A stretch of DNA of 64,000 nt from assembly GCA_964385105.1 (NCBI GenBank), contig CAYLMU010000001.1, positions 194,252 through 258,251 of the forward strand, in the 5' to 3' direction. This document shows positions 28,601-42,184 of the stretch, piece after piece. This DNA is from an uncultured Candidatus Saccharibacteria bacterium (GTDB taxonomy: Bacteria > Patescibacteriota > WWE3 > UBA101185 > UBA10185). Positions within the stretch are counted from its first letter, which is position 1, and each line of letters begins with the position of its first letter. Both the position numbers and the translations under genes were made by a program. The notes under the pieces were generated by a model. The model had not been told where the DNA came from. It saw nothing but the letters and a program-made list of their open reading frames with translations, and did not search any database.

Positions 28601-30292
28601 TTATTCTTCCAGTGGAGCAGTAATAGGTAGTTTTGCCTCTTTTATTTTTAGCCGTCTCATTAATTTGTAAAATAGTTCAATTTCTTCTACTGCAAAGATT
28701 TTTGTAAAAAATAAGTATACGGCGGTACCTGCTATACCTGCTACGGCTGTTAATGCGGCAAGTCCTGCGGTGTGTGCCGTGTCAAAAACAAATTCATCTA
28801 AAAGTTTTAACGGAGCATAAAGTGAAATTCCCATAAATACTGCTGCATAACTTATTTTCACAAAAGGAATAAGAAGTTCGTTAACCTCAAATCCGCCGAG
28901 TTTTTTTGCTAAAAAGTGCAAAAGCAGAATCGAGTCAAGTATCGAAGTTATAGTATATGCAAATGCAATAGACCATACTCCAAGATTTAAAACTCTCACA
29001 AATGTATAAGAAAGTGCAACATTAATAACAATTGTAACTAAACTTATTAAAACCGGCGTAACAGTGTCTTTTAGCGAATAAAAAGTTCTTGATAGCAAAT
29101 AAAATGTACTTTGGGCAAAAATTGATATGCTAAAAAATGCCAAAGCATAAGAAGTTTTTACTGTTGCTTCCCAGGGAAAGTTTGAAACACCGTACACAAG
29201 TCTTACAACAGGTACTCGAAGAACCAGCAAAATCACACTTGCCGGAATAACAAGAAACAATGTTTGATGAAGCGTTGTTATAAATATTTTTTTGAAGTTT
29301 TTTTGGTCATTCTCATCGGAATGTTCTGATAGCACAGGAAGAGAAGCTGTAGCAATAGAAGCCCCAAACAAATGAACGGGAAAATATTGTAATTGACTGG
29401 CGAATTTAAGCAAAACTACCGATGAGGTTGATATTAAAATAGCAAGTGAATTATTTATAGTGGCTACAAGCTGACTGAATAGCACACTCATTACACGAGG
29501 GGGCATTAGCAAAAACATTTTTCTTACTTCGGGAATGCTTACTTTTAAACTTGGAAAATACCTAAAGTCTACAGTTTTCAAAAAAGGTAGCTGTATTAAC
29601 AGATGAAACGCTGCGCCGATTACAATACCCAGTGCCGGCCCATATATGCCCATAATCGGACTTAAAAACATTATTCCAAAAAGCATCCCGAGGTTGTACA
29701 AAATAGGAGCAAGTGCAGGAATGGCAAATTGTTTAAACGATTGAAGTATGCTTGTGAAAAAACTGCTTACAACAAGTACAAGCTGAGCACCCATCATTAT
29801 TTGCATAAGTCTGGCGCCAAGTTTTATTTGGTCAGGTGTAAAAGTACCAACTGAAAGTATTCTTATTAACGGTTCGGCAAAAAGCATAACAAGTACCCCC
29901 AACGCAAAAAAAGTTAAAATTCCGATTGTTATAACCGAAGAAGCAATTTCCCAGGCACGTTTTTTATTTTTTTGTAAAGTGTCTGCAAATATTGGTATAA
30001 AAACAGTTGATATAGCGCCAATAACAAGCACCGAATATATAAGGTTGGGTATTCGATCGGCAGTGTAAAAAATTCCCAGTTCTTCAGAAACGCCGAAATA
30101 ATAGCTTAAAAGCCTTCCCTTTAAGAGTCCAAGTATGGCTGTTATTCCACTTGAAATTGCAAGCAAAAAAGCAGCAGAAAGTATGGAATTTTGTGCCTGA
30201 ACCGCAAAGCTGAGTCTGCCTTTGAGCTGAATAAATTTGAGTTTATTACCAAACAGTTCTAAAAAATTCATATATATGCTATGATACAGCAC
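28601..30292 (-). CDS. murJ: Lipid II flippase MurJ (MviN)
   Basis: About 14 predicted TM helices. MurJ/MOP-superfamily pattern. 563 aa. Confidence 0.8.
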   Translation of the reverse strand: MLYHSIYMNFLELFGNKLKFIQLKGRLSFAVQAQNSILSAAFLLAISSGITAILGLLKGRLLSYYFGVSEELGIFYTADRIPNLIYSVLVIGAISTVFIPIFADTLQKNKKRAWEIASSVITIGILTFFALGVLVMLFAEPLIRILSVGTFTPDQIKLGARLMQIMMGAQLVLVVSSFFTSILQSFKQFAIPALAPILYNLGMLFGIMFLSPIMGIYGPALGIVIGAAFHLLIQLPFLKTVDFRYFPSLKVSIPEVRKMFLLMPPRVMSVLFSQLVATINNSLAILISTSSVVLLKFASQLQYFPVHLFGASIATASLPVLSEHSDENDQKNFKKIFITTLHQTLFLVIPASVILLVLRVPVVRLVYGVSNFPWEATVKTSYALAFFSISIFAQSTFYLLSRTFYSLKDTVTPVLISLVTIVINVALSYTFVRVLNLGVWSIAFAYTITSILDSILLLHFLAKKLGGFEVNELLIPFVKISYAAVFMGISLYAPLKLLDEFVFDTAHTAGLAALTAVAGIAGTAVYLFFTKIFAVEEIELFYKLMRRLKIKEAKLPITAPLEE

Positions 30293-30295
30293 GTT

Positions 30296-30637
30296 ATGGC
30301 AAACACAACATCAGCAAAAAAAGCAATAAGGCAGTCGCAAAAGAAGCGACTTCATAATTTATTGTGGAAAAATCGTATAAAAGAAACTTCAAAGAACATA
30401 AAGAAATATCTACATGAAAAGAATGCAGATATTGATATAATAAAAAAAGAAGAAACTCTGTTTTATAAAATAGTGGATAAAGCTGCAAAAAATAAAGTTA
30501 TTCACAAAAACAAAGCAGGTAGACTTAAATCAAGAATTTCAAAACAGATAGCTGCCCATGAAAAAGCTGGAACAAATAAAAAACCTAAATCCGAAAAAGA
30601 ATCAACCTCCACCAGAAAATCCAAATCTAAGTCCTAA
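30296..30637 (+). CDS. rpsT: 30S ribosomal protein S20 with a ~22-aa Lys/Ser-rich C-terminal extension
   Basis: MANTTSAKKAIRQSQKKRLHN...VIHKNKAGRLKSRISKQIAAHEKAG matches S20 end-to-end. An extra tail TNKKPKSEKESTSTRKSKSKS follows. Start assigned to the Met at 30296. Confidence 0.8.
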   Translation: MANTTSAKKAIRQSQKKRLHNLLWKNRIKETSKNIKKYLHEKNADIDIIKKEETLFYKIVDKAAKNKVIHKNKAGRLKSRISKQIAAHEKAGTNKKPKSEKESTSTRKSKSKS

Positions 30638-31142
30638 TTTAGTTCCTCACATAGTTCCGCCGGTAAAACAGCGTAATCATGAAGCATATGTACCCTTTGT
30701 TGTTGCAATTACTCTTTTATTTCAATTGTTTTTGGTAATAATAATCTTGCATAACTTTTTACTTAATCGCACAATTTTAAGCCTTGAAAAAGATATGAAC
30801 AACACTTATGCACTTGTGCAGCGTGATATTAATGTTTTTGAACAAGTTGATACATTAAGCAGAAAAACCGTTGTTTATGAATCTGCAATGCAATCAAGAA
30901 GTGAAATCGGGAAATATGTTGAGTCAATGCTTGGTTCAATTGCCGGTGATATTGAACTTAACGAAGTTTCGGCTACAGGAAATAGAGGTACTTTTGAAAT
31001 CACAACGCATGAAGCTTTGAGTGGGGCATTACTTATTCATAATTTGTTTGAGACCCGAAATGTTGACTCGGTAGCAATTACGGCAGCCGACTTGAACGAT
31101 AAGGGTGAGTATACAATTAAAATGGAGATTTTGTTTTTATAA
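30558..31142 (+). CDS. PilN-like bitopic membrane protein (type IV pilus / T2SS inner-membrane alignment subunit-like), 194 aa
   Basis: Short cytoplasmic N-terminus (IKNLNPKK, compare the PilN INLLP motif), a single TM helix, a coiled-coil segment and a C-terminal alpha/beta domain. The only in-frame ATG upstream of the TM segment is at 30558, which overlaps the rpsT 3' end by 80 nt in another frame. The start is therefore uncertain. Confidence 0.45.
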   Translation: MKKLEQIKNLNPKKNQPPPENPNLSPNLVPHIVPPVKQRNHEAYVPFVVAITLLFQLFLVIIILHNFLLNRTILSLEKDMNNTYALVQRDINVFEQVDTLSRKTVVYESAMQSRSEIGKYVESMLGSIAGDIELNEVSATGNRGTFEITTHEALSGALLIHNLFETRNVDSVAITAADLNDKGEYTIKMEILFL

Positions 31143-31702
31143 TGCTTGATTATCAAGGGATAACCAACACATACGAAAGAGAAATTAATACTAAACCGCA
31201 AAATAAACTTACTTTATTTATTTTATTGTTTATATTAAATGTGGTTACGTTTAGCTATCCTATAATTTATAAAGGCTATCAGTCAGTTGTAGAGAAAAAT
31301 GCAAAAATTTTAGAATATAATCAAGTTAACCGTGATCTTGAGTCAAATCTGGAAAAAGTTTCATCCTACAGAAATTACATGAATTCAAAAGAAGCACAAA
31401 TTGCCACATTGAATAGGGCAATTCCCTCACATCTTGAATCAGCAGAATTTTTGATGCTATTAACCGATGCTGCTTCACCTTATGGGTATTTGGTAGAAAA
31501 ACTTCAAGTTGATAATTCTAACCCCAACGAAGTTATTATAAATATTGATATGTTAGGTCCTTCATCGACTGCATCATCGGTAATTAAGGATGTAGAAAAT
31601 TTATCGCGGTTAACAATAATTGATGATGTGAAAGTAAAGCCTTCAAATGATGCTTTAGGAGTTCTTGAAATAACGTTTAAAGTTAGAATATTTGCGAGCT
31701 AA
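31142..31702 (+). CDS. PilO-like bitopic membrane protein, 186 aa
   Basis: N-terminal TM helix (LTLFILLFILNVVTF), coiled-coil region and a C-terminal domain ending ...LEITFKVRIFAS, as PilO domains do. Its start overlaps the preceding gene's stop (ATAATG coupling). Confidence 0.5.
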   Translation: MLDYQGITNTYEREINTKPQNKLTLFILLFILNVVTFSYPIIYKGYQSVVEKNAKILEYNQVNRDLESNLEKVSSYRNYMNSKEAQIATLNRAIPSHLESAEFLMLLTDAASPYGYLVEKLQVDNSNPNEVIINIDMLGPSSTASSVIKDVENLSRLTIIDDVKVKPSNDALGVLEITFKVRIFAS

Positions 31703-31707
31703 AAAAT

Positions 31708-31887
31708 ATGATTAAAGTTGTATTGATTTTTTTGAGTACAATGCTTATACTTTTATTAGGATTGTTCTTTGGATTCGAACAAATTCAAAAGAGCTTTGAA
31801 ATTCCGGCACATATTGCGGAACTTTCAATACCTTTTGAAAAAGAATTAAACAAAGAATTCATAGAAAATCTTAAACCTGCCTTATGA
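31708..31887 (+). CDS. Small hydrophobic protein (59 aa; below the ORF-track cutoff)
   Basis: Manual translation gives MIKVVLIFLSTMLILLLGLFFGFEQIQKSFEIPAHIAELSIPFEKELNKEFIENLKPAL. Its stop overlaps the next gene's ATG (ATGA), suggesting translational coupling in the pilN/O-like operon. Confidence 0.3.
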   Translation: MIKVVLIFLSTMLILLLGLFFGFEQIQKSFEIPAHIAELSIPFEKELNKEFIENLKPAL

Positions 31888-32375
31888 ACGCAAAACAACA
31901 AGCACAAAACGGCTTTAAAACCTTTATAGTTACTTTTCTAGGATCGCTTGTAATATTTGGTTCGTTTTATTACTTTTTAATGGAAGCTTCTACAGAAGAT
32001 GTAAATGTAGAAGACTCCTCAACTTTAATGGGTGAAACCAGAACAGCTGAAAATGATACTATGCCTACACAGGCACTTGAAGCATCTGAAGTTACTAATG
32101 AAACTGAAGATGTAAAAGGTGCAGCCGTGGCAGGTGACAGTCCGTTTGCCCAACTCTCGGCTCAAAATGTTTATACTGCGCAAGGAGCTGTATTATCAGG
32201 AACAGACCAAACAACTCAAAGTACTGTTCCAAGCACCGGTTTTACAAGCATAACAATGGGATTGGTTATTTCTGTAGCACTTTTTTCATTCTTTATGTAC
32301 ATAGTATTTATAAACCCAAGAAGATACGCATTATCCAAGTTTGAAGAAAATGTAATGCGCGATCTCGAGAAATAA
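31884..32375 (+). CDS. Hypothetical membrane protein (163 aa) with N- and C-terminal TM helices and a Thr/Ser/Glu-rich exposed middle region
   Basis: ORF coupled to the upstream small ORF. Hydrophobic segments at residues ~12-32 and ~125-150. Confidence 0.4.
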   Translation: MNAKQQAQNGFKTFIVTFLGSLVIFGSFYYFLMEASTEDVNVEDSSTLMGETRTAENDTMPTQALEASEVTNETEDVKGAAVAGDSPFAQLSAQNVYTAQGAVLSGTDQTTQSTVPSTGFTSITMGLVISVALFSFFMYIVFINPRRYALSKFEENVMRDLEK

Positions 32376-32418
32376 ACCATCAATTCATCAAAGATAGTTC
32401 AATCTAAATTTTGAGATT

Positions 32419-33192
32419 TTATCCTGTTACCAAAACAGCATCAATAAGTAGTCTGTATAATTTTGTTCCTGGGGGAGAACAGGTCATTAGAACAACAGTT
32501 GACTCGTTTAAATATTTAGGTTTAATTTCTGCCAATGGGTTAACCTGGTCGGGTTTGAGTTGTCTTTTTCCTTCTACTTTGTATGTAAGTGTTTTGCCTT
32601 TATATTCTATTGTAAACTCATCACCTGTTTCCAAATCTCCAAGTGTTGAAAAGATTGTTTTGTAATTTTTGGGGTTATAAAAAAAAGGCAAAACCGAGTG
32701 TCCGTAAATAAATGAGTTTCCGGGTTCACCGGGTAGAGCGGAGCCTGTGTAATGTCCAAGTGCATGGTCGGGAACAAGTGTCGGCTCATTAATTTGCACA
32801 CTTGCCCGTTTAATATTAAGTTTTGGTATAGTCAAATAAAAATATTCCTCATAATTACTGTCGTCAGAATTAAAAGTACTTTTTCCAAGAACTTGGGATT
32901 TTTCGTGATTTTGCTGATTTTGTTCTTTTTGTACACTTAGTTCGTCAAATTTAAACTCCTGAAAACCGCTGACATATCCAAGTGCACTTACTTCAAGTAT
33001 TTCAGTGTTTTTTTCTTGGGTTTGAAATGTAACCAAAGGTAACGCAACTTGAGTTGCAAGAAGTGTGAGCGCAAGTACCGGAACTGCAATTGGCACAATT
33101 CTAGTTCTTGCCATAAACCAAAAGTTTATTTGAGTATAAATCGGGTCGTATGGTTGATCTTTAATATATACTTTGGGCTTAAAGTAGGGCAT
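32419..33192 (-). CDS. Sortase-family transpeptidase
   Basis: N-terminal TM anchor. Catalytic His (SFIYGHSVLP), TLxTC-type Cys motif (VVLMTCSPPGT) and a downstream conserved Arg (KLYRLL). Confidence 0.8.
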   Translation of the reverse strand: MPYFKPKVYIKDQPYDPIYTQINFWFMARTRIVPIAVPVLALTLLATQVALPLVTFQTQEKNTEILEVSALGYVSGFQEFKFDELSVQKEQNQQNHEKSQVLGKSTFNSDDSNYEEYFYLTIPKLNIKRASVQINEPTLVPDHALGHYTGSALPGEPGNSFIYGHSVLPFFYNPKNYKTIFSTLGDLETGDEFTIEYKGKTLTYKVEGKRQLKPDQVNPLAEIKPKYLNESTVVLMTCSPPGTKLYRLLIDAVLVTG

Positions 33193-33205
33193 TGGTTTTA
33201 TATTA

Positions 33206-33910
33206 TCATTTTTCTTTCAGTATTTGTTCTACGGTGTATACGCTTGAGATAGAAGGATGGATTTTTCCGGTTTTCATACTTTTGTCTATTTGGTAAAGAG
33301 TTTTATAAATTTGGCTTACTTTTTGTTCAGTGTAGCTTTTTGCCTGTTTCAGTGCTTTATTTTTTGCAAATGGCGCTATTTTACTTGAAAGAGGTGAGTT
33401 AGTTACTATATATGCAATGTTTCTAAATCCGTAAACAATCATGGAAAATAAGTAAAAAGGATCGGTTTGGTCTTGCATAAGCCTTTGAAGCTCGTTGTAT
33501 GTGTTTTTTCTATTATTTGAGAATAAGTAGTCTAAGAATCTAAATATGTCAGAAGAAGGTTCTGCGTTATTTATTACTTCTTTTGCTTTTAACGCTGCTT
33601 TGTTTTTGATAAACACATTTGATTTGGATAGTTCTTTATTTGAGTAAATAACTATATTTACATCAGTTGGTACAGATTTTAGGGCATCAACATACTCCAA
33701 GAGGTTTTTTCTTCCCGCGTCTGACACATCAACAGATACAAACGGAGGTTCTGAAAAAAGGTCATATGAACTGCTGATTTCGGTAAGTTGACCCGGAGTA
33801 ATATTATTTACATTCACGTCTGTTTTATTAGTACTTTCGAGTTTTTTTTGTAATTCCGTTATGACTTTTCTGGTTTTAGAAAAGTCGTCACCATGTATTA
33901 AAAAAATCAT
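33206..33910 (-). CDS. holA: DNA polymerase III delta subunit-like (HolA), short form
   Basis: MIFLIHGDDFSKTRKVITEL resembles the HolA N-terminus (YLLYGEE...). The AAA+-like clamp-loader fold is inferred. 234 aa. Confidence 0.45.
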   Translation of the reverse strand: MIFLIHGDDFSKTRKVITELQKKLESTNKTDVNVNNITPGQLTEISSSYDLFSEPPFVSVDVSDAGRKNLLEYVDALKSVPTDVNIVIYSNKELSKSNVFIKNKAALKAKEVINNAEPSSDIFRFLDYLFSNNRKNTYNELQRLMQDQTDPFYLFSMIVYGFRNIAYIVTNSPLSSKIAPFAKNKALKQAKSYTEQKVSQIYKTLYQIDKSMKTGKIHPSISSVYTVEQILKEK

Positions 33911-33915
33911 AAGGT

Positions 33916-34974
33916 TTAATGGATGCCAAAAATATATCTTTGAACGTATGCGTGCATTTGAGAAAAGTCGCCGTTTCTTGGTAAAAGCACATACTGCCCA
34001 TCATAAAGGCTGGTGTCTTCAGGTGCATACAACAATCCGCCTGAATCAGCAGCACTTCTATCATCAAGAACAATTGATGTTACGTCTTCAAAGTTAATTT
34101 GTTGTGAGAGTAAATAGAAATTTTGAATATCGTTAAATGTTAGGTTTGTATCTACATTTTTTTCATATGCATTGTACAGATCGCTTAATTTTGCAGGATT
34201 AATAATTGTATTAAGTGACAATGCCTTATCTTTAATGGCCATAATAACTTTTTGTTGTCTTGCAGCTCTTGCAAAGTCAGTGCCTTCGTTGTTACTTCCT
34301 TTTCTAGATCTGGCAAATTTAAGTGCGGTCTCACCATCCATTTGTTGTTTACCGGCTGAAAATGAAACAGTTTCGTATCTTTCATTAAGTGGGGCATTTT
34401 CTTTACCCTCAACAGGATATTCCGAGTCTACAAATGAGTTGTCAACTACAACCTCAACCCCACCCAAAGTATCTACAGTATCTTTAAAAAGTTCAAAATC
34501 TACAACAGCATAATAATGGATTGGGATTCCAAGAACATTTTCTACAACTTGGCTTATGCCCTCTCCGCCTTCATATGCATAAACAGCATTTATTTTTATA
34601 AAAAAAGGTGTCGGTCCTGTTGTTTTTACCCAAAGGTCTCGCGGCAATGAAATTAATGTGACGGTTTTATCAACACGACCGATGGAAGCAACTAAAATTG
34701 TGTCGGTTAAAGTAGCTGACCTTGTATCTCCCTGACGTTTGTCTGAGCCCAACACTAATATATTGGTTCTACCGTCTGTTTCGTTTAATTTTACTTCAGA
34801 AATATTTGCCACAATTGAAATAGGGTTAAAAATAGCTTTTACGTCATTACCGAATAAAATTAACGATAATCCAAAAAAGCCGAGTACACATGCTGCAATT
34901 AAAATAGGTTTTTTATAATTCTTTTGCTTGGGTTGAGCAGTATTTCGTTTTTTTGCAACATTCATGTATTTCAT
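33916..34974 (-). CDS. LytR-CpsA-Psr (LCP) family cell-wall glycopolymer transferase
   Basis: N-terminal TM helix. LCP core NILVLGSDKRQGDTRSATLTDTILVASIG...ISLPRDLWV. Confidence 0.8.
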   Translation of the reverse strand: MKYMNVAKKRNTAQPKQKNYKKPILIAACVLGFFGLSLILFGNDVKAIFNPISIVANISEVKLNETDGRTNILVLGSDKRQGDTRSATLTDTILVASIGRVDKTVTLISLPRDLWVKTTGPTPFFIKINAVYAYEGGEGISQVVENVLGIPIHYYAVVDFELFKDTVDTLGGVEVVVDNSFVDSEYPVEGKENAPLNERYETVSFSAGKQQMDGETALKFARSRKGSNNEGTDFARAARQQKVIMAIKDKALSLNTIINPAKLSDLYNAYEKNVDTNLTFNDIQNFYLLSQQINFEDVTSIVLDDRSAADSGGLLYAPEDTSLYDGQYVLLPRNGDFSQMHAYVQRYIFGIH

Positions 34975-34976
34975 AT

Positions 34977-35630
34977 TTATGATGTAATCAATTTATAGAA
35001 ATGTTGTGGGTCTAAGCTTGCATTTCCGATTAAAAAACCGTTAAGACCGTTTATGCTTTTGAGCTCCTTGATGTTTTCGCTGTTAACTGACCCGCCATAC
35101 AAGATTTTACCATTTTCAGGTAGTTTATGCTTCATGAAATTTACTTCCTTTTCAATGTTTTCTATGGGTTTTGCATTATAAACCCCGTCTTTCGATATGT
35201 TTTGCGGGTCTTCCCATGCAAGGATGACATTTTCTGCATAATATTTTTCAATATTTTGAGGGTCTGTAAAGCAAATTATAGGAATTATACCGTTTTCCAG
35301 GCAATTTGTTGCTTTTTTTAATACAATTTCCGCGTCTTCGCCTCTTTCGCTATGCCCGACAATACTGTATTTAACATAATTTTTTAGTTGAAATGTTCCA
35401 ACTTCACCTGTGTGAGCGCCTTTCTCATAAATTGAAACATCCTGGGATGCGAGTTCAATGCCTTTATTTTGTGCAATTTTATTTTGAACCAATTGTAAGT
35501 GTAAAAATGAAGGCGCAATAACAATATTGGCATTATGTGTTTGAGTTGAAATGTTTTTCCAATAATCAAACCACTGTTCAATTTCAGAAACCGACATATT
35601 CATTTTCCAGTTGGCAATAAAATATTTCAT
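34977..35630 (-). CDS. tpiA: Triosephosphate isomerase (short, 217 aa)
   Basis: Hallmark N-terminal IANWKMN. Catalytic region IVGHSERG. pgk...tpi synteny. Confidence 0.75.
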   Translation of the reverse strand: MKYFIANWKMNMSVSEIEQWFDYWKNISTQTHNANIVIAPSFLHLQLVQNKIAQNKGIELASQDVSIYEKGAHTGEVGTFQLKNYVKYSIVGHSERGEDAEIVLKKATNCLENGIIPIICFTDPQNIEKYYAENVILAWEDPQNISKDGVYNAKPIENIEKEVNFMKHKLPENGKILYGGSVNSENIKELKSINGLNGFLIGNASLDPQHFYKLITS

Positions 35631-35633
35631 AAG

Positions 35634-36467
35634 TTAAGCAAGTTCTTTGAGTACTTCTTCAATTAAGGTAGGCAGTGATTCAATATCTTCGTGTGTATAA
35701 TCATATCCTAAAACATTTAAACAAGAAAACAATACTCCAATATTTGAGTAAATATTTTTTGCATATGTACAAGCTACTAAACTATGTACAAGAACGTTTC
35801 CTCCTATTTCGCCGATTCTTGATTTACTGCACCCAACAGGGCATCCGGAACATGAAGGAAAAGTATCTTTACTTACTGTCATCTTGCCGACTTCGTTCAA
35901 AAGCTTGTGATACAGTTCTTCGTACTTTTCTTTATTTATTATTTTTTCGGTTTTGGTACCCGTTACAACAAGTCCGAATATATTTTTTTTGTCGAATTTA
36001 TCTTCGAGAAAGGTTTCGGGGGTTAAAAAGAAATCATCAAGCAAAAATTTTCCGGCCGCTTTTTTTATAATACTTCTTTTTCCGGGAAGTCCAAGTGAAG
36101 TTATTTCGGCTTCTTGTGATTTAAAACTGACTATTTCATTTTGAATATCAAGTATTACAGGCTGGGGGGATTTTCCATGGATTACAATTGAATCTACTCC
36201 CGAAAAAGCCAAACGTAATGAAAGTGATCCGCCGATATAGATATCTTCTACAACGCCCTCACTATAAAAAACTATAGATGTTTTTGAAACATAAGGAAAT
36301 TTTCCGTTTAAAGGCCCAACCGAGATAATAACCGGATCTTTGTCGATGTTATCAAGCAGCAGTTTTAAACCCAAGCCTACACCTCCGATATAAGGGTTGA
36401 GTTCAGGCAAAGATTTTACTTCAGATTCATGCGTACTTAAATTTATATAAAGTATTTTTTTGTGCAT
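35634..36467 (-). CDS. Truncated aldehyde:ferredoxin oxidoreductase-like protein: AFOR N-terminal domain plus a C-x2-C-x3-C motif, lacking the tungstopterin-binding domains (277 aa)
   Basis: Collinear with the AOR N-domain: ILYINLSTHESEVKSLPE / IGGVGLGLKLLL / VIISVGPLNGKFPYVSKTSIV / VDSIVIHGKSPQPVILDIQNEIVSF / NIFGLVVTGTK. C-terminal CSGCPVGC resembles the AOR [4Fe-4S] ligand motif. Confidence 0.6.
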   Translation of the reverse strand: MHKKILYINLSTHESEVKSLPELNPYIGGVGLGLKLLLDNIDKDPVIISVGPLNGKFPYVSKTSIVFYSEGVVEDIYIGGSLSLRLAFSGVDSIVIHGKSPQPVILDIQNEIVSFKSQEAEITSLGLPGKRSIIKKAAGKFLLDDFFLTPETFLEDKFDKKNIFGLVVTGTKTEKIINKEKYEELYHKLLNEVGKMTVSKDTFPSCSGCPVGCSKSRIGEIGGNVLVHSLVACTYAKNIYSNIGVLFSCLNVLGYDYTHEDIESLPTLIEEVLKELA

Positions 36468-36468
36468 A

Positions 36469-36750
36469 TTATTCCAGTAAATGCTCCTCGTCTACCTCGG
36501 AAGATTCTTCAACAGTAAAAACGCCTGTTGGGCATATGTTCTTTATTTTTTCAACTTTTAGCTTATTTACCGTTTTATCCATGTCAATAGTAAAAATCAC
36601 CTCACCAATCATATTCTCTTCCTGGTTTCTAAATATTCTTATCGGAGAGCCTTCTAACCCAAGTTTATTTAATTGTCTTTGAACTTCAATAACGCAAAGC
36701 TCACACCCTATGCAATTTTCGGGAAATGTAATTTTAATAATTTTAGCCAT
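36469..36750 (-). CDS. Small ferredoxin-like protein (putative 4Fe-4S)
   Basis: CIGCELC plus a distal CP (NICPTGVF) motif. 93 aa. Overlaps the pgk stop by 8 nt and abuts the mini-AOR gene. Confidence 0.55.
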   Translation of the reverse strand: MAKIIKITFPENCIGCELCVIEVQRQLNKLGLEGSPIRIFRNQEENMIGEVIFTIDMDKTVNKLKVEKIKNICPTGVFTVEESSEVDEEHLLE

Positions 36751-37720
36751 TAGCCTCCTTTTTGTAACCTAGGGCTTCAATCCCCGGTAAAGTTTCATTT
36801 ACAATGAATTCAAGCATTGCACTTCCGCCTGTAGACACCCAGTTTATATAATTTAACGTGTTTGTGCTTTTTAATGCAGAAATTGTGTCTCCGCCGCCTA
36901 CTACCCAATACGAGTTTGAGTTGGGGATTAATGAAGCAATTTTATTTGTGCTCGTTGCAAATTCCGGAACTTCAAATTGCCCTAATGGTCCTGCCCATAC
37001 AATAGTGTTTGAGTTTGTTATTATTTCTATATATTGCGCGGTTGTTTCAGCGCCAATATCGCGGGGATTATTTTGTTCGTCATAAATATAGTCTGTAGGA
37101 ATATGTAAATTTTGAGGAATTTGCTCATCCCAGTTTAATCCGATTAAGCCACCAAGCAAAACATTGTTTGCTATTTTAATAAATTTTGAAACTACCGGTT
37201 TTTTACTCTCAAGCTTTGCTCCTCCTACCAATACTGTAAGTGGTTTATTTGGCGATTTTATAACATTGCTTAATACCTCCACTTCTTTTTGCAGGTTTAA
37301 TCCGGCGTATGAAGGCAGTAAACCCGCTACCCCAACAATAGAAGCATGTTTTCTATGTGAGGTAGCAAAGCTTTCATTAATATAAATATCTGCTTTGGAT
37401 GCCAGTTCTTTTGAAAACTCGTTATCATTTGATTCTTCTCCGGGATTAAAACGCAGATTTTCTAAAAGTTCATATTGGTTTATGCCTAAATAAGTATCAA
37501 AATATGGTTTTAGTTTTTGCGTAGAAAGGTTGGAATCCTCTGAACCACCAGGTCTTCCGATGTGCCCAGCTATTACCGGAATAACTTTATTTTCTATCAA
37601 ATAGTTTAATGTAGGAAGCCCCGATTCAAGCCTAAAGTAATCGTTATCGGGTACATCAAGATCCATTCGTACCAGAGCTTTCATACCGGGCGTTAATTTT
37701 GCTTCTGTAAGTAGTCGCAT
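36743..37720 (-). CDS. pgk: Phosphoglycerate kinase (short, 325 aa)
   Basis: N-terminal VRMDLDVP...IPVIAGHIGRPGG. LENLRFNPGEE. C-terminal nucleotide-binding region GGGDT-like (VVGGGDTISAL). Confidence 0.8.
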   Translation of the reverse strand: MRLLTEAKLTPGMKALVRMDLDVPDNDYFRLESGLPTLNYLIENKVIPVIAGHIGRPGGSEDSNLSTQKLKPYFDTYLGINQYELLENLRFNPGEESNDNEFSKELASKADIYINESFATSHRKHASIVGVAGLLPSYAGLNLQKEVEVLSNVIKSPNKPLTVLVGGAKLESKKPVVSKFIKIANNVLLGGLIGLNWDEQIPQNLHIPTDYIYDEQNNPRDIGAETTAQYIEIITNSNTIVWAGPLGQFEVPEFATSTNKIASLIPNSNSYWVVGGGDTISALKSTNTLNYINWVSTGGSAMLEFIVNETLPGIEALGYKKEANG

Positions 37721-37780
37721 ATTTTATCTTATTTTACAATTTAATTGATGTTTTGAACATTTTAGTGCTAAATTATACTT

Positions 37781-39880
37781 ATGGCGACATTAAAAGAATT
37801 GCGTGAGATTCACTTACAGAAATTAAACAGGCTAAAAGAGCTGGGAATTGATCCGTTTCCTGCACGTGTTAAAAAAGATTTTGAAAATGCACATGTAACT
37901 TCTAATTTTGAAGAATTTGAAGGTAAGACTATAAGTTTGGCGGGCAGAATTGTTTCATACAGAGAACATGGAGGTCTAGTTTTTATAGATATTAAAGACC
38001 AGTCGGGAAAAATTCAGGTTTATGTAAAAAAAGAAACACTTAAACCCACAAATGCTAAGCAACAAACTTTAGGGTTTGAAGATTTATCTTTATTGGATGT
38101 TGGAGATTATATTGAAGTAACAGGTGAGATAACAAAAACAAAAGCAGGTGAGATTTCAATAATGCCGGGTGGGTTAAGAATTTTGTCAAAGACTTTAAGG
38201 CCGCTACCTGAAGAGCTAAATAACAAAGAAACCAGAATGAGAAGGCGTTATGTTGATACTAAAGTTAACGAGGATGTTTTTGACAGATTTGTTCGAAGAG
38301 CTAAATTTTGGGAAGCGCACCGTAAATTTTTAAACAGTAAAGGGTTTTTAGAAATTAATATTCCTGTTTTAGAAAATATTCCGGGTGGGGCAGATGCAAC
38401 ACCTTTTGTTACACACATGGATGCAATTGACCAGGACTTTTTCTTAAGAATTTCACAAGAATTGTATTTAAAGAGACTTGTAGGAGGAGGTTATGAAAAA
38501 GTTTATGAAATTGGCCCTAGATTTAGAAATGAAGGATTGTCTGATGAACATTTGCCCGAACACATTGCTATGGAATTTTATTGGGCATATGCAAGTTGGG
38601 AAGAAGGAATGAAGCTAATTCAAGATTTATTTAACTATATTCTTGATGAAGTTTATGAAGGTAAAAGAAAGTTTTCAATTCGGGGTTTTGACGTTGATTT
38701 TACCGGAGATTGGGAAGTTATCGATTTTGCCGAAGTTATGAAAGAAAAATACAAAATTGATGTTCATAGTACCACGGTTGATGAAGTAGCAAAAATTTGT
38801 AAACAAAATGGAATTGAAGATGATTTTGCACAAAATCTGCATAGAGGAATTGATAATCTTTGGAAAAATTTGCGCCGTGAAATTGCAGGACCGGCGTTTT
38901 TAGTTAATCATCCAAAATATTTATCTCCGTTGGCTAAAGCAAAGGCGCATGAACCGCATGTTACCGAACGATTTCAGCCGATTATTGCGGGTAGTGAACT
39001 TGGTAACGGCTGGTCTGAAATTAATGACCCGGTCGATCAACTTGAACGGTTTAAAGAACAACAAAATTTGCGTGATGCAGGTGACGATGAAGCACAATGG
39101 CTAGATATTGATTATGTTGAAATGCTTGAGTATGGAATGCCTCCTACTTTTGGTTATGGTCATAGCGAACGTGTTTTTTGGTTTTTAGAAGATGTAAGCG
39201 CACGTGAAGGGGTTCCGTTTCCTCAGTTAAAGCATGTGGTAGATGACACAACATTAGAAATATATAATTTACCGCGTCAAAACACACTGCTTGCTATAAA
39301 CCCAAACTTAGATGATATCAATGAAAACGGCAATTTACCGTCACGGGAAGAGGCAGAATTTTTGCTAAATAAACATGTTAAAGACGACTATCAAAAATTG
39401 CACGCAAAAATGGTTGCATCAGCTTTAGAACAATATGCCGGGAAATTTAAAGCTAATAATGAGTTATGGTTTATAGCAGGACTTTTGCACGACCTGGATT
39501 ATTTTGAGTATCCCGATGAACATCCGAAAAAATCACTGGAGTGGTTTAAAGAAAAAGAGTACTCGGAAGCTTTAATGCATGCAATTGCTGCACATGCATA
39601 CCAAAGAACCGGCGTGGAGCCAAAAACAAAACTTGCAGCAGCTCTTATTGCTACGGATGAACTTTCAGGATTGTTGTATGCTTATTCGCTAATGCGACCG
39701 GAAGGTTTTAAGGGAATGAGTGCAGGCTCAGTAAAAAAGAAATTTAAAGATAAAGCATTTGCCCGAACCGTTGACCGAAATGACGTTTTATACGGCATAG
39801 AAAAACTTGGTGTGGATTTTGATGAGCATGTAAATTTTTTGATTAGTGTTTACAGTGAAATAGATGAGTTAAAAAAGTAA
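37781..39880 (+). CDS. lysS: Lysyl-tRNA synthetase (class II) fused to a C-terminal HD-domain phosphohydrolase (~200 aa)
   Basis: The N-terminal ~500 aa carry an OB anticodon-binding domain and class II motifs (FLEINIPVLE; RISQELYLKRL; GSELGNGWSEINDP; GMPPTFGYGHSERV). The C-terminal extension carries an HD signature: H(AKM)...LLHDLDY...HAIAAH...DELSG. Confidence 0.85.
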   Translation: MATLKELREIHLQKLNRLKELGIDPFPARVKKDFENAHVTSNFEEFEGKTISLAGRIVSYREHGGLVFIDIKDQSGKIQVYVKKETLKPTNAKQQTLGFEDLSLLDVGDYIEVTGEITKTKAGEISIMPGGLRILSKTLRPLPEELNNKETRMRRRYVDTKVNEDVFDRFVRRAKFWEAHRKFLNSKGFLEINIPVLENIPGGADATPFVTHMDAIDQDFFLRISQELYLKRLVGGGYEKVYEIGPRFRNEGLSDEHLPEHIAMEFYWAYASWEEGMKLIQDLFNYILDEVYEGKRKFSIRGFDVDFTGDWEVIDFAEVMKEKYKIDVHSTTVDEVAKICKQNGIEDDFAQNLHRGIDNLWKNLRREIAGPAFLVNHPKYLSPLAKAKAHEPHVTERFQPIIAGSELGNGWSEINDPVDQLERFKEQQNLRDAGDDEAQWLDIDYVEMLEYGMPPTFGYGHSERVFWFLEDVSAREGVPFPQLKHVVDDTTLEIYNLPRQNTLLAINPNLDDINENGNLPSREEAEFLLNKHVKDDYQKLHAKMVASALEQYAGKFKANNELWFIAGLLHDLDYFEYPDEHPKKSLEWFKEKEYSEALMHAIAAHAYQRTGVEPKTKLAAALIATDELSGLLYAYSLMRPEGFKGMSAGSVKKKFKDKAFARTVDRNDVLYGIEKLGVDFDEHVNFLISVYSEIDELKK

Positions 39881-39948: not shown

Positions 39949-40182
39949 TTACGTTATAACTTTTTCTACTTCCCAATCAGGATTTTCATCTGCTACCTTT
40001 TTTGCGCGTGGTACTGCGTAGAATCCGGTGATTTCCCCTTTTCGGTACCACCGTTTATCATCATTATTCCACCCGTGAAGGATTCCTCCAATTGTTGTGA
40101 CTATACAATAGTCACCTAAAGTTACAAAGTGCAAAGGCAATTTACTCATATGAACAATCTGTACTATAGCTTTTGGTTTCAT
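39949..40182 (-). CDS. Small protein, paralogue 3 of a tandem GW-motif family (77 aa)
   Basis: Shares ...hGW-x3-(K/R)-W... with the two upstream ORFs (HGWNNDDKRWYRKGE). It overlaps the next ORF's stop by 4 nt. Confidence 0.45.
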   Translation of the reverse strand: MKPKAIVQIVHMSKLPLHFVTLGDYCIVTTIGGILHGWNNDDKRWYRKGEITGFYAVPRAKKVADENPDWEVEKVIT

Positions 40183-40427
40183 TGCTGTCCTTCTCTTATA
40201 TGTTTAGAGACTTCAACAAGTTGTTTTACCGCATTTCTGGCTTCTCGTGTGGTAGAAAAGCCTAAAAGGCACCCCTGTTCGCTAGTGGATATCCATTTTT
40301 TTCCTGTCCAACCCTGTAAGCCGTTTTGAGATTCGCCTATAATAACAAAACTTTTATCTGATGGCGTCTTAAACCAGGGTACAAGAGCTCGGTGTAAAAA
40401 CCTAACTTTTACAACATTTTTTGACAT
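40179..40427 (-). CDS. Small protein, paralogue 2 of the tandem GW-motif family (82 aa)
   Basis: QGWTGKKWISTSEQ, then F-x4-EA-x4-K helix, parallel to its neighbours. Confidence 0.45.
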   Translation of the reverse strand: MSKNVVKVRFLHRALVPWFKTPSDKSFVIIGESQNGLQGWTGKKWISTSEQGCLLGFSTTREARNAVKQLVEVSKHIREGQQ

Positions 40428-40430
40428 GCA

Positions 40431-40676
40431 TTACCTCTTTTGTGAATAAACCGGCATAGCATATTCTTTAAGCTCTTCTTGTGCCGTTTCTTTGGAATCA
40501 AATGGTTTTAATGAGTGAAATGCACTTGTAGTCCAAGCCCTTCCTACAGTCCACCCGTGATTAAAAGGACTAAGGATGTAGAACTGTTCGTCGGTACCGC
40601 CTGGCTTGAAATGCCGCTCTCTGGCTTCTTTTCCGTTCAAAATCTCATAGGCAGAAGAATCATATATTTTGTTCAC
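40431..40676 (-). CDS. Small protein, paralogue 1 of the tandem GW-motif family (81 aa)
   Basis: HGWTVGRAWTTSAF, then FDSKETAQEELKEY, parallel to its neighbours. Confidence 0.45.
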   Translation of the reverse strand: MNKIYDSSAYEILNGKEARERHFKPGGTDEQFYILSPFNHGWTVGRAWTTSAFHSLKPFDSKETAQEELKEYAMPVYSQKR

Positions 40677-40855: not shown

Positions 40856-42184
40856 ATGCTCGATATTAAATTTATTAGAGAAAACCCCGATATTGTAAAA
40901 AAAGCAGTTGAAGAAAAGCACCTTTCACAGGTAGTAAATATAGATGAAATTATTAATTTGGATGAATTATATAGAAATAAGCTAAGAATTGTTGAGGAAC
41001 ACCGCGCTTTACGCAACCAGCTTTCGGATAATATTTCAAAAGTAGACGAAGAAACAAGACAAAAACTCATAAACGAGGCTTCACAAGTAAAGGAAGAGTT
41101 GTTTACAAAAGAACAAGAGCTTGCTGAGATTGAATCTCAACTTACATCAAAATTGCTAAAAGTTCCAAATATTATTGCGCCTGATGTACCATCAGGTAAA
41201 GATGAAAGTGAAAACGTTGTAATAAGAAGTTGGGGTGAGCCAAAAACATATGATTTTGAGCCAAAAGACCATGTAGAACTTGGTGAAAAGCTTGATTTAA
41301 TTGATATTCCAACGTCGGCAAAAGTTTCGGGTTCAAGATTTAATTATTTAAAAAATGAAGCTGTTTTGTTGCAATTTGCACTTATTCAATTTGTTTTTGA
41401 CACACTAACCAACAAAGAAATTATTTCAGAACTTGCTGAGCGTGTAGGAAATAATTCGAACAACGCTTTTATACCGGTTTTGCCTCCGGTGATTATTAAG
41501 GCCGAAGTTGCAAAGAAAATGGACAGATATGATCCTATCGAAGATAGATATTATTATGAGGATGACGATGTAATGTTTGTGGGGAGTGCTGAGCATAGCA
41601 TTGGCCCGATGCATATGGATGAAATTTTAAATCAAAGCCAACTGCCGTTAAGATACATTGGTTATTCAACAGCATTTAGACGTGAAGCCGGCTCATATGG
41701 AAAAGATACAAAAGGCATTTTAAGACGTCACCAGTTTGATAAGCTTGAGATGGAAATTTTTTCTACTCCTGAAAGCGGATTGGCCGAGCAAGAACTTATT
41801 GTTGCAATTCAGGAATATTTGTTACAGCAATTACAACTTCCTTATCAGGTGATGATGATATGTACCGGAGACATGGGCAAACCCGATTATCGCCAGATTG
41901 ATATAAATACCTGGATGCCGGGAGAAAATGCTTACCGTGAAACTCACACTTCTGATTATATGACTGACTTTCAGGCAAGAAGACTTAACACTCGTTATAA
42001 AACAAGTGAGGGCACTAACGAATATGTTCATATGAATGATGCAACTGCATTTGCTATAGGAAGAACACTTATTGCTATCCTAGAAAATTATCAGCAAAAA
42101 GACGGCTCAATAAAAATACCTGAAGTGTTGCAGAAATATATGAACGGTATTAAAGAAATAAAAGAAAGTGGTAACATAGAGTAA
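40856..42184 (+). CDS. serS: Seryl-tRNA synthetase
   Basis: N-terminal coiled-coil arm. Class II motifs (RFNYLKNEAVLLQFAL; FRREAGSYGKDTKGILRRHQFDKLE; GLAEQELIVAIQE...). Confidence 0.9.
   Translation: MLDIKFIRENPDIVKKAVEEKHLSQVVNIDEIINLDELYRNKLRIVEEHRALRNQLSDNISKVDEETRQKLINEASQVKEELFTKEQELAEIESQLTSKLLKVPNIIAPDVPSGKDESENVVIRSWGEPKTYDFEPKDHVELGEKLDLIDIPTSAKVSGSRFNYLKNEAVLLQFALIQFVFDTLTNKEIISELAERVGNNSNNAFIPVLPPVIIKAEVAKKMDRYDPIEDRYYYEDDDVMFVGSAEHSIGPMHMDEILNQSQLPLRYIGYSTAFRREAGSYGKDTKGILRRHQFDKLEMEIFSTPESGLAEQELIVAIQEYLLQQLQLPYQVMMICTGDMGKPDYRQIDINTWMPGENAYRETHTSDYMTDFQARRLNTRYKTSEGTNEYVHMNDATAFAIGRTLIAILENYQQKDGSIKIPEVLQKYMNGIKEIKESGNIE

Follow-up and report, generated by a model that had tools for sequence, protein, structure and literature searches.

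Why should a lysyl-tRNA synthetase (LysRS) carry a phosphohydrolase on its C-terminus, and is such a protein real? The question is raised by a gene at 37781..39880 on the forward strand of the 64,000-nucleotide stretch analyzed here, hereafter the window (positions 194,252 to 258,251 of contig CAYLMU010000001.1, assembly GCA_964385105.1, from an uncultured Candidatus Saccharibacteria bacterium). The gene is one uninterrupted open reading frame (ORF) of 699 codons plus stop, in a window with a GC content of ~36%, and it encodes a LysRS-HD fusion protein. Judged from its sequence, the product comprises a complete, housekeeping-type class II LysRS (residues 1–497) that is predicted to be active in charging, and an HD-superfamily metallohydrolase (residues 518–699) with an intact six-ligand site of the two-metal kind, which is likewise predicted to be active. 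We regard the anatomy and origin of this fusion, as described below, as close to certain. The substrate of the HD domain is a more tentative matter: our preferred reading, to which we assign a probability of roughly 0.45, is that the domain would hydrolyze dinucleoside polyphosphates of the diadenosine tetraphosphate (Ap4A) type or a related phosphoanhydride by-product of LysRS, a proposal that draws on analogy with known fusion enzymes.

Anatomy and recurrence of the LysRS-HD fusion

Both halves of the protein exceed curated family thresholds, in agreement with a first-pass annotation of this DNA that had read the gene as a LysRS with a C-terminal HD fusion. Two NCBIfam lysine--tRNA ligase models passed their cut-offs (PRK00484, 474.1 bits against 468; TIGR00499, 429.1 bits against 427.6), and their matches span residues 6–485, covering the whole model. 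The anticodon-binding oligonucleotide-binding (OB) fold occupies residues 52–134 (37934..38182; Pfam PF01336 tRNA_anti-codon, 54.7 bits) and the class II catalytic core occupies residues 148–483 (38222..39229; Pfam PF00152 tRNA-synt_2, 214 bits); these and all other parts of the fusion lie on the forward strand. The catalytic residues of the LysRS half are invariant across 29 full-length fused homologues (31–67% identity), as seen for R249, N250, E251, and G252 of motif 2 (FRNEG, residues 248–252; 38522-38536) and for G460 and R464 of motif 3 (GYGHSER, residues 458–464; 39152-39172).

The HD half (residues 518–699; 39332..39877) is recognized by its Pfam match, its stand-alone homologues, and its modeled all-alpha structure. 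Pfam HD (PF01966) aligns with residues 541–629, with 30.3 bits when the whole fusion is scored and 32.5 bits for its C-terminal part alone, against a gathering score of 22. An H...HD...H...H...D motif of six residues is diagnostic of a dinuclear site, as in YqeK, where it comprises H21, H50, D51, H83, H109, and D127 (PMC8177086). Read in this way, the fusion protein has a predicted dinuclear metal site (39401..39658) formed by H541, H570-D571, H581, H605, and D626; all six ligands of the canonical signature that had earlier been noticed in this region are therefore present, and they are joined by a further invariant residue, D573. Each of the six is invariant in 30 members of the family. The ligands are also invariant in the 29 fused homologues with the exception of position 626, which is D in 20 and E in 9, while D573 is invariant in fused and free-standing homologues alike. 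Beyond the metal site lies a family-specific conserved segment, YAYSLMRP...KKKFKDKAFA...R666 (39677..39778), in which R639, K653, K656, F660, A661, and R666 are invariant in close family members; across the 29 fused proteins R666 never varies, K653, K654, and K656 are almost always retained, and R639 is found in 18. The segment is a basic patch that may bind phosphates.

An AlphaFold2 (AF2) model of the C-terminal 209 residues (residues 491–699) is an all-helical domain with a mean predicted local distance difference test (pLDDT) score of 91.6 and a predicted template modeling (pTM) score of 0.86, preceded by ~28 poorly modeled residues, mostly with pLDDT below 70. The full-length model has a mean pLDDT of 90.4 and a pTM of 0.70, with pLDDT below 50 at residues 501–515. 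Given the fall in pTM from 0.86 to 0.70 and the low pLDDT of residues 501–515, we interpret the models as a pair of rigid domains that are flexibly tethered and between which no interface is predicted with confidence.

The junction itself preserves what looks like the record of its formation. Unfused LysRS relatives end in '...T[KR]EIY[GN]L', with a stop directly after it or after a few more residues (tails of loci L012, L029, L035, L036, and L038), and the corresponding tail of the fusion, TLEIYNL (residues 491–497; 39251..39271), which includes part of a short modeled helix at residues 489–495, ends at L497. The earlier placement of the end of the LysRS core near residue 500 thus holds, with the linker covering residues 498–517 and the HD domain starting at ~518. 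The order across the junction is ...TLEIYNL(497), then PRQNTLLAINPNLDDINENG, then NLPSREEAEF..., where the linker (39272..39331) is disordered in the AF2 model and unconserved among homologues; the linkers of the 29 fused homologues range from 19 to 71 amino acids and are likewise unconserved. The HD half begins NLPSREEA, which aligns with the N-terminus of stand-alone HD proteins ('M..LPTREEA') except that the Met is absent and N518 stands in its place. Because a LysRS tail, a spacer, and a Met-less HD N-terminus follow one another, the junction looks like the product of a lost lysS stop codon, after which translation would have run on across a short spacer and into the neighboring gene, and the linker is probably a former intergenic spacer.

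How widespread such fusions are is a point that the first-pass annotation had left to a survey. Among 80 species-representative genome loci carrying the HD family, LysRS and HD form a single ORF in 31, lysS lies upstream on the same strand as a separate gene in 16, and no lysS is found within 4 kb of the HD gene in ~33, which comprise all of the Opitutaceae loci and some distant Patescibacteria. When the 150 nearest LysRS cluster representatives were surveyed with a hidden Markov model (HMM) of this HD family, 35 carried it, including one whose order is reversed (HD-LysRS). Searched exhaustively with the full-length sequence, a set of 1.84 billion cluster representatives yielded ~25 clusters that align end to end with the fusion at 31–57% identity, and a query spanning the junction matched over a dozen fusions. 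The reverse fusion (P0189 and cluster members P0300-P0306) places HD at residues 2–173 and LysRS at residues 218–712, and this order, present in an eight-member cluster with several contigs of up to 85 kb, implies an independent fusion event. A neighbor-joining tree of 46 LysRS cores, unbootstrapped and indicative only, requires at least ~10 transitions between the fused and separate states.

These observations bear directly on the possibility that the fusion is an artefact of assembly or sequencing in which two genes were merged, to which we give almost no credence. The nearest LysRS relative of the window's protein on the tree (L036) does have separate genes, and some database entries look fragmented; however, the reading frame is continuous across the junction, the HD start codon is missing (the Met of homologues is replaced by N518), 31 species-representative genomes and ~25 divergent protein clusters share this architecture, and the apparent fragments are accounted for by runs of N inside lysS. 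A frameshift merger, which the first-pass annotation had named as the outcome that would overturn its reading, is contradicted by fused forms with differing linkers in dozens of independent assemblies, and an assembly artefact is effectively excluded. Fused entries of 320–520 amino acids had suggested a split or frameshifted lysS in L006 and L007, an interpretation that we rejected since runs of N truncate the gene calls there; these two independent assemblies both encode the complete fusion. A real break occurs in L001 (2907-5014), where lysS is split into ORFs of 347 and 337 amino acids ~50 nt apart and the LysRS-HD junction is still fused; this break is probably a frameshift, an assembly error, or a pseudogene.

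Where the two genes are separate, they remain closely coupled. The closest homologues of the C-terminal domain are stand-alone HD proteins of ~180 amino acids with 55–69% identity from WWE3, Dojkabacteria, and other Patescibacteria, and their loci conserve the order (greA or pgk)-lysS-HD-...-serS that is found in the window. In L002 a distance of 1 nt separates the end of lysS from the HD start, and the HD start lies within a few nucleotides of the lysS stop in L022, L028, L037, L040, and L054. This close spacing persists in loci whose LysRS ends in a DUF2000-like or B3_4-like tail with a stop codon of its own: there, too, the HD gene begins only a few nucleotides further on. Clustering of ORFs across the loci, which was confounded by spurious antisense ORFs in high-GC genomes, recovered synteny of greA, lysS, and serS only. 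Taken together, lysS and the HD gene are a conserved pair across Patescibacteria that has been fused or split repeatedly, and a functional link between the two has many times become fixed in the form of a fusion.

Two kinds of insertion into this pair were also observed. L005, the locus whose HD protein is the nearest stand-alone relative of the HD domain encoded in the window, has a PhdYeFM-antitoxin/PIN-toxin pair (3357-3999) precisely in the space that separates lysS from the HD gene. In four other loci a conserved small ORF of ~50–65 amino acids lies between them (L019, 3781-3975; L029, 3389-3568; L035, ~3805-3981; L038, ~3847-3945), with the core motif '...AENLEGVGFSGxxELGxAVxEV...'; this ORF is absent from the window.

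HD is one of several domains that LysRS has acquired at this position. Among the 150 nearest LysRS clusters, architectures without HD comprise LysRS-DUF2000 (20 clusters), LysRS-B3_4 with a PheRS-beta-type domain (12), LysRS-tRNA_bind (3), LysRS with AlaX-like tRNA-synt_2c and tRNA_SAD domains (2), and the LysX type with LPG_synthase_C (3). Architectures that combine HD with another module are LysRS-B3_4-HD (P0153), LysRS-tRNA_bind-B3_4-HD (P0171), LysRS-tRNA_bind-HD (L026), LysRS-HD-B3_4 (L044), LysRS-HAD-HD (P0157, 918 amino acids), and LysRS-NUDIX-HD (P0244, 935 amino acids). In the genomic survey, DUF2000-like tails are present in L022, L028, L037, L040, L054, and L064, and B3_4-like tails in L041 and L051. 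The LysRS C-terminus in Patescibacteria-like lineages is thus a fusion hot spot for catalytic add-ons, at which two partner themes coexist, namely tRNA-directed modules and small-molecule nucleotide hydrolases. P0153 was deposited from a 'Promethearchaeota archaeon' metagenome-assembled genome, and is either a binning contaminant or a bacterial-type fusion transferred to an Asgard archaeon.

No dedicated post-transfer editing domain is known for LysRS, and for this reason the DUF2000-, B3_4-, tRNA_bind-, and AlaX-tailed forms may be unrecognized cis-editing variants. The DUF2000 tail matches PDB entry 2GAX weakly (E = 0.018), and no paper on DUF2000 was found in the literature searched.

LysRS-HD, which is widespread, can be described as a synthetase that has gained a catalytic domain or, just as well, as an adenylate-forming enzyme to which an HD hydrolase has become fused. 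Public names of the fused proteins are limited to 'lysine--tRNA ligase', 'lysyl-tRNA synthetase class II', or 'hypothetical protein', and no description of LysRS-HD fusions was found in the literature searched. The hot spot for C-terminal additions has been hidden by this public annotation, in which its products are all named simply 'lysine--tRNA ligase'.

Candidate functions of the tethered HD domain

Our preferred reading starts from the chemistry of the LysRS half. LysRS forms lysyl-AMP, whose reaction with ATP or other nucleotides can give Ap4A and related dinucleoside polyphosphates; the tethered HD domain would then hydrolyze these, or a similar phosphoanhydride by-product, near the site of production. 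The outcome would be nucleotide recycling and a pre-emptive clean-up that prevents accumulation in organisms with minimal nucleotide metabolism. Aminoacyl-tRNA synthetases (aaRSs) synthesize Ap4A, with LysRS among the structurally documented producers, and the known degraders are Nudix, ApaH, and YqeK (PMC10148737). The logic would be that of the NadD-YqeK 'proofreading' fusion of mycoplasmas, in which an HD hydrolase fused to an adenylyl-transferring enzyme removes its erroneous products (PMC9426524). The linkage specific to LysRS would fit a diffusible substrate, and the occurrence of any linker length, of either domain order, and of unlinked copies in Opitutaceae would fit such a substrate better than a precisely positioned macromolecule. 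Relatives in which another small-molecule nucleotide hydrolase sits beside the HD domain, LysRS-NUDIX-HD and LysRS-HAD-HD, also favor this reading; the first of them fits the Ap4A idea, because asymmetric Ap4A hydrolases universally have the NUDIX fold (PMC10148737).

A number of results weigh against this reading, and the identity of the HD family is foremost among them. The first-pass annotation had drawn an analogy with YqeK, the HD-domain Ap4A hydrolase of Firmicutes, and had pointed to profile searches against the HD, YqeK, and HDIG families. The assignment to HD stood, whereas the YqeK model TIGR00488 gave no match to the window's protein at E≤1 and matched only 3 of 30 family members (best E = 0.05). 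The HDIG model TIGR00277 gave the window's protein 27.5 bits against a cut-off of 27.6. All 30 members match HDIG (best E = 3e-11), but the family signature GLLHD[IL]D[WYF] contains a local motif, HD[IL]D, with an invariant Asp where HDIG has Gly. An Arg shortly before the first His is described as strictly conserved in all HD phosphatases and as pivotal for their function (PMC8177086). This Arg is absent here: position -3 is L or Q, and K or R occurs at -2 in 18 and at -1 in 10 of the 29 fused proteins, the residues before the first His being Y-Q-x-L-H in close members and variable in distant ones. Similarly, Ap4A cleavage by Streptococcus pyogenes YqeK depends on Lys62, which lies three residues past the HD doublet (PMC11857287), and a YqeK-type Lys at this position is absent from the family, which has W, Y, or F in 27/29 fused and 30/30 stand-alone proteins. 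The failure of TIGR00488, the lack of an Arg before the first His, and the lack of a Lys after the HD doublet together leave the YqeK analogy unsupported in the form proposed, and by these sequence criteria the domain belongs to a distinct, uncharacterized HD family with an intact two-metal site that is not YqeK. No biochemical evidence for any member of this HD family was found in the literature searched.

Wider similarities also lean in part toward RNA. After HDIG, the most-matched model is NadD-YqeK, through its YqeK-like half (27/30 members, best E = 2e-6), which counts in favor of our preferred reading; this cross-match is weak, and the window's protein scores 13.9 bits on PRK07152 against a cut-off of 315. 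Further weak cross-matches are to RNase Y (24/30 members), to the HD half of the archaeal tRNA methyltransferase model PRK12703, and to the archaeal family TIGR00295; the RNase Y and PRK12703 matches count against an Ap4A-type substrate. Sequence searches of the PDB, with the single sequence and with a 30-member profile, returned nothing significant. Foldseek comparison with the PDB gave as its best match, a weak one, the HD domain of Escherichia coli GlyRS-beta (7EIV; E = 0.01, TM ~0.5), which is again unfavorable to our preference. A tRNA complex of GlyRS-beta (7YSE) reached a TM-score normalized to the query (TMq) of 0.56, followed by YpgQ and PgpH, and YqeK had an E value of 0.18; Foldseek probabilities were ~1.0 for several HD structures, though with E values of only 0.01–0.2. 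Lastly, the tRNA-directed modules B3_4, tRNA_bind, DUF2000, and AlaX-like occupy the same C-terminal position of LysRS and in three architectures (LysRS-tRNA_bind-B3_4-HD, LysRS-HD-B3_4, and LysRS-tRNA_bind-HD) co-occur with HD, while the NUDIX-HD and HAD-HD composites are represented by one cluster each and their modules match generic models only. Given these tRNA-type partners, a tRNA-directed role for the HD domain is possible.

Such a role can be formulated in two ways. In the first, the HD domain could act as a phosphodiesterase or phosphatase on the ends of tRNA or other RNA, removing a 2',3'-cyclic or a 2'- or 3'-phosphate from the 3' end of tRNA(Lys), or mending another RNA lesion, and thereby enabling charging. 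According to PMC10673834, which cites Yakunin 2004, the HDIG domains of CCA-adding enzymes are phosphatases and 2',3'-cyclic phosphodiesterases for which tRNA 3'-end repair has been proposed. The best Foldseek matches, including the tRNA complex, are to GlyRS-beta, whose HD domain contacts the acceptor arm (PMC8464048); the conserved basic segment KKKFKDKxFA...R, the RNase Y and PRK12703 cross-matches, and the tRNA-directed modules that share the LysRS terminus, several together with HD, point the same way. These attractions are offset by several facts. No CCA-adding-enzyme model is among the 25 NCBIfam families matched by any of the 30 members at E≤1, the structural similarities are all weak and of similar strength, and general tRNA-end repair would leave the specific linkage to LysRS unexplained. 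Furthermore, a long, variable, unconserved linker, the occurrence of either domain order, and the unlinked copies speak against an action in cis on bound tRNA that depends on geometry. On balance we consider this explanation unlikely, although it is the most credible of the alternatives. Ranked just behind it, and similarly doubtful, is a broader proposal in which the HD domain would not be an Ap4A hydrolase and would form one piece of a modular quality-control platform on Patescibacteria LysRS, healing tRNA(Lys) 3' ends or removing an RNA-linked nucleotide adduct in cis. The companion notion that different lineages attach either editing-type domains (B3_4, AlaX-like, DUF2000) or phosphohydrolases (HD, NUDIX, HAD) to the same C-terminus as parts of such a platform is held with equal reserve.

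More doubtful again is the suggestion that the HD domain hydrolyzes some nucleotide that has nothing to do with side reactions of LysRS, for instance (p)ppGpp or (p)ppApp, cyclic di-nucleotides, or non-canonical (d)NTPs, with its adjacency to lysS due only to operon history or a need for co-expression. PgpH (c-di-AMP), YpgQ, SP1746 (NTP/dNTP), and the small alarmone hydrolases are structural neighbors of similarly weak rank, and the Opitutaceae copies are free-standing without a lysS neighbor, one of them following a dGTPase-like gene. In contrast, repeated independent fusion to LysRS in both orders, combined with tight start/stop coupling, is hard to explain without a functional link, and no RelA/SpoT, HD-GYP, or PgpH model was matched. 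The Opitutaceae locus in question, L084 (2263-4540), is on a chromosome where the stand-alone HD gene lies directly after a dGTPase-like triphosphohydrolase ORF, with a cytidine deaminase-like ORF nearby; we rejected this nucleotide-metabolism neighborhood as a functional clue since the arrangement is found in no other locus and is thus unconserved. aaRSs commonly acquire non-catalytic RNA-binding appendages, and the HD domain might be a non-catalytic tRNA-binding or regulatory element of this sort, like the degenerate HD domain of GlyRS-beta that is its best fold match in the PDB. This is very improbable, because GlyRS-beta has lost the HD doublet (Ser393/Lys394; PMC8464048), whereas six ligands and D573 are kept here in fused and free-standing proteins (with D or E at position 626 in the fused ones), and conserved metal ligands indicate selection for metal binding and catalysis.

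If the HD domain does destroy Ap4A-type dinucleotides, as we prefer, then one protein would both make and break them and would be kept by selection in minimal genomes. The fusion would then bear on the long-running question of whether bacterial Ap4A is a deliberate alarmone or a damage by-product to be cleared, for which it would offer a compact, single-polypeptide test system. Nudix, ApaH, and YqeK would also be joined by a fourth bacterial family of Ap(n)N hydrolases, and the predicted metabolism of Patescibacteria would have one gap fewer. If instead the HD domain acts on tRNA, it would represent a new kind of synthetase-linked RNA repair and, should that repair operate in cis, the first aaRS with an active phosphodiesterase that repairs its own tRNA substrate.

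Surroundings of the gene

As context, the fusion gene is preceded by a divergent phosphoglycerate kinase-like gene on the reverse strand (36743..37720), a position syntenic with L005, and is followed by a serS-like gene on the forward strand (40856..42184), where the order lysS-HD-...-serS is the one kept in relatives. Between the fusion gene and serS, three consecutive small ORFs of 77, 82, and 81 amino acids lie on the reverse strand (39949-40676); they have no detectable similarity to one another or to anything in the loci compared, and may be either lineage-specific small proteins or non-genes. The pgk/lysS intergenic region (37720-37781) coincides with a strand switch, ORFs of at least 200 amino acids being almost all on the reverse strand to its left and almost all on the forward strand to its right. 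The GC skew changes sign in the 30000-38000 region of the window and its cumulative minimum lies near 28–30 kb, a pattern expected around a replication origin. With its nearest relatives being metagenome-assembled genomes labeled WWE3 or other Patescibacteria, the window most likely derives from a WWE3-like member of the Patescibacteria. Near lysS, Rfam identified no regulatory RNA. The window contains no tRNA gene, no second lysS, and no second gene of the HD family, and matches to promoters and terminators were no more common than in shuffled sequence.

Comparison with known systems

Several known systems resemble LysRS-HD in part, and none of them is a family match. The nearest in logic is NadD-YqeK (PRK07152; JCVISYN3A_0380), in which an HD phosphohydrolase with the dinuclear motif is fused to, or encoded in a tight cluster with, an enzyme whose reaction transfers the AMP part of ATP, and the HD domain has been proposed and partly shown to hydrolyze erroneous dinucleotide products of NadD (PMC9426524). 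Its partner, however, is NadD rather than LysRS, and the YqeK-type Arg and Lys are absent from the LysRS-HD family. YqeK itself (COG1713, TIGR00488), the symmetric Ap4A hydrolase of Firmicutes, which splits Ap4A into 2 ADP and reaches kcat/KM values of 10^6-10^7 M-1 s-1, is likewise a small (~190 amino acids), all-alpha HD protein with the same six-ligand motif. An alignment of ligand spacings places ~21 fewer residues between HD and the last Asp in the LysRS-HD family, the local motif is HD[IL]D[WYF] instead of HD with a Lys three residues on, and the genomic partner is lysS where that of YqeK is nadD.

Two further systems link HD domains to tRNA. The CCA-adding enzymes (E. coli Cca and Mycobacterium tuberculosis Rv3907c) have an active HDIG-type HD domain at the C-terminus of a tRNA 3'-end enzyme (PMC10673834), but they differ from LysRS-HD in the partner, in having HDIG where LysRS-HD has HDxD, and in giving no profile cross-match. 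The HD domain of GlyRS-beta (7EIV, 7YSE, 8IE2) is the only one previously described inside an aaRS and the best, if weak, structural match (E = 0.01, TMq 0.52–0.56). It has lost the HD doublet and serves in acceptor-arm binding or allostery (PMC8464048), whereas LysRS-HD keeps the ligands, is presumably an enzyme, and is joined to LysRS by a flexible tether. Finally, LysX (MprF-LysRS; PRK02983) likewise combines a bacterial LysRS, in one protein, with a further enzyme by which a LysRS product is used or processed; in LysX this enzyme is an N-terminal lysyl-phosphatidylglycerol synthase that consumes Lys-tRNA, while in LysRS-HD it is a C-terminal phosphohydrolase.

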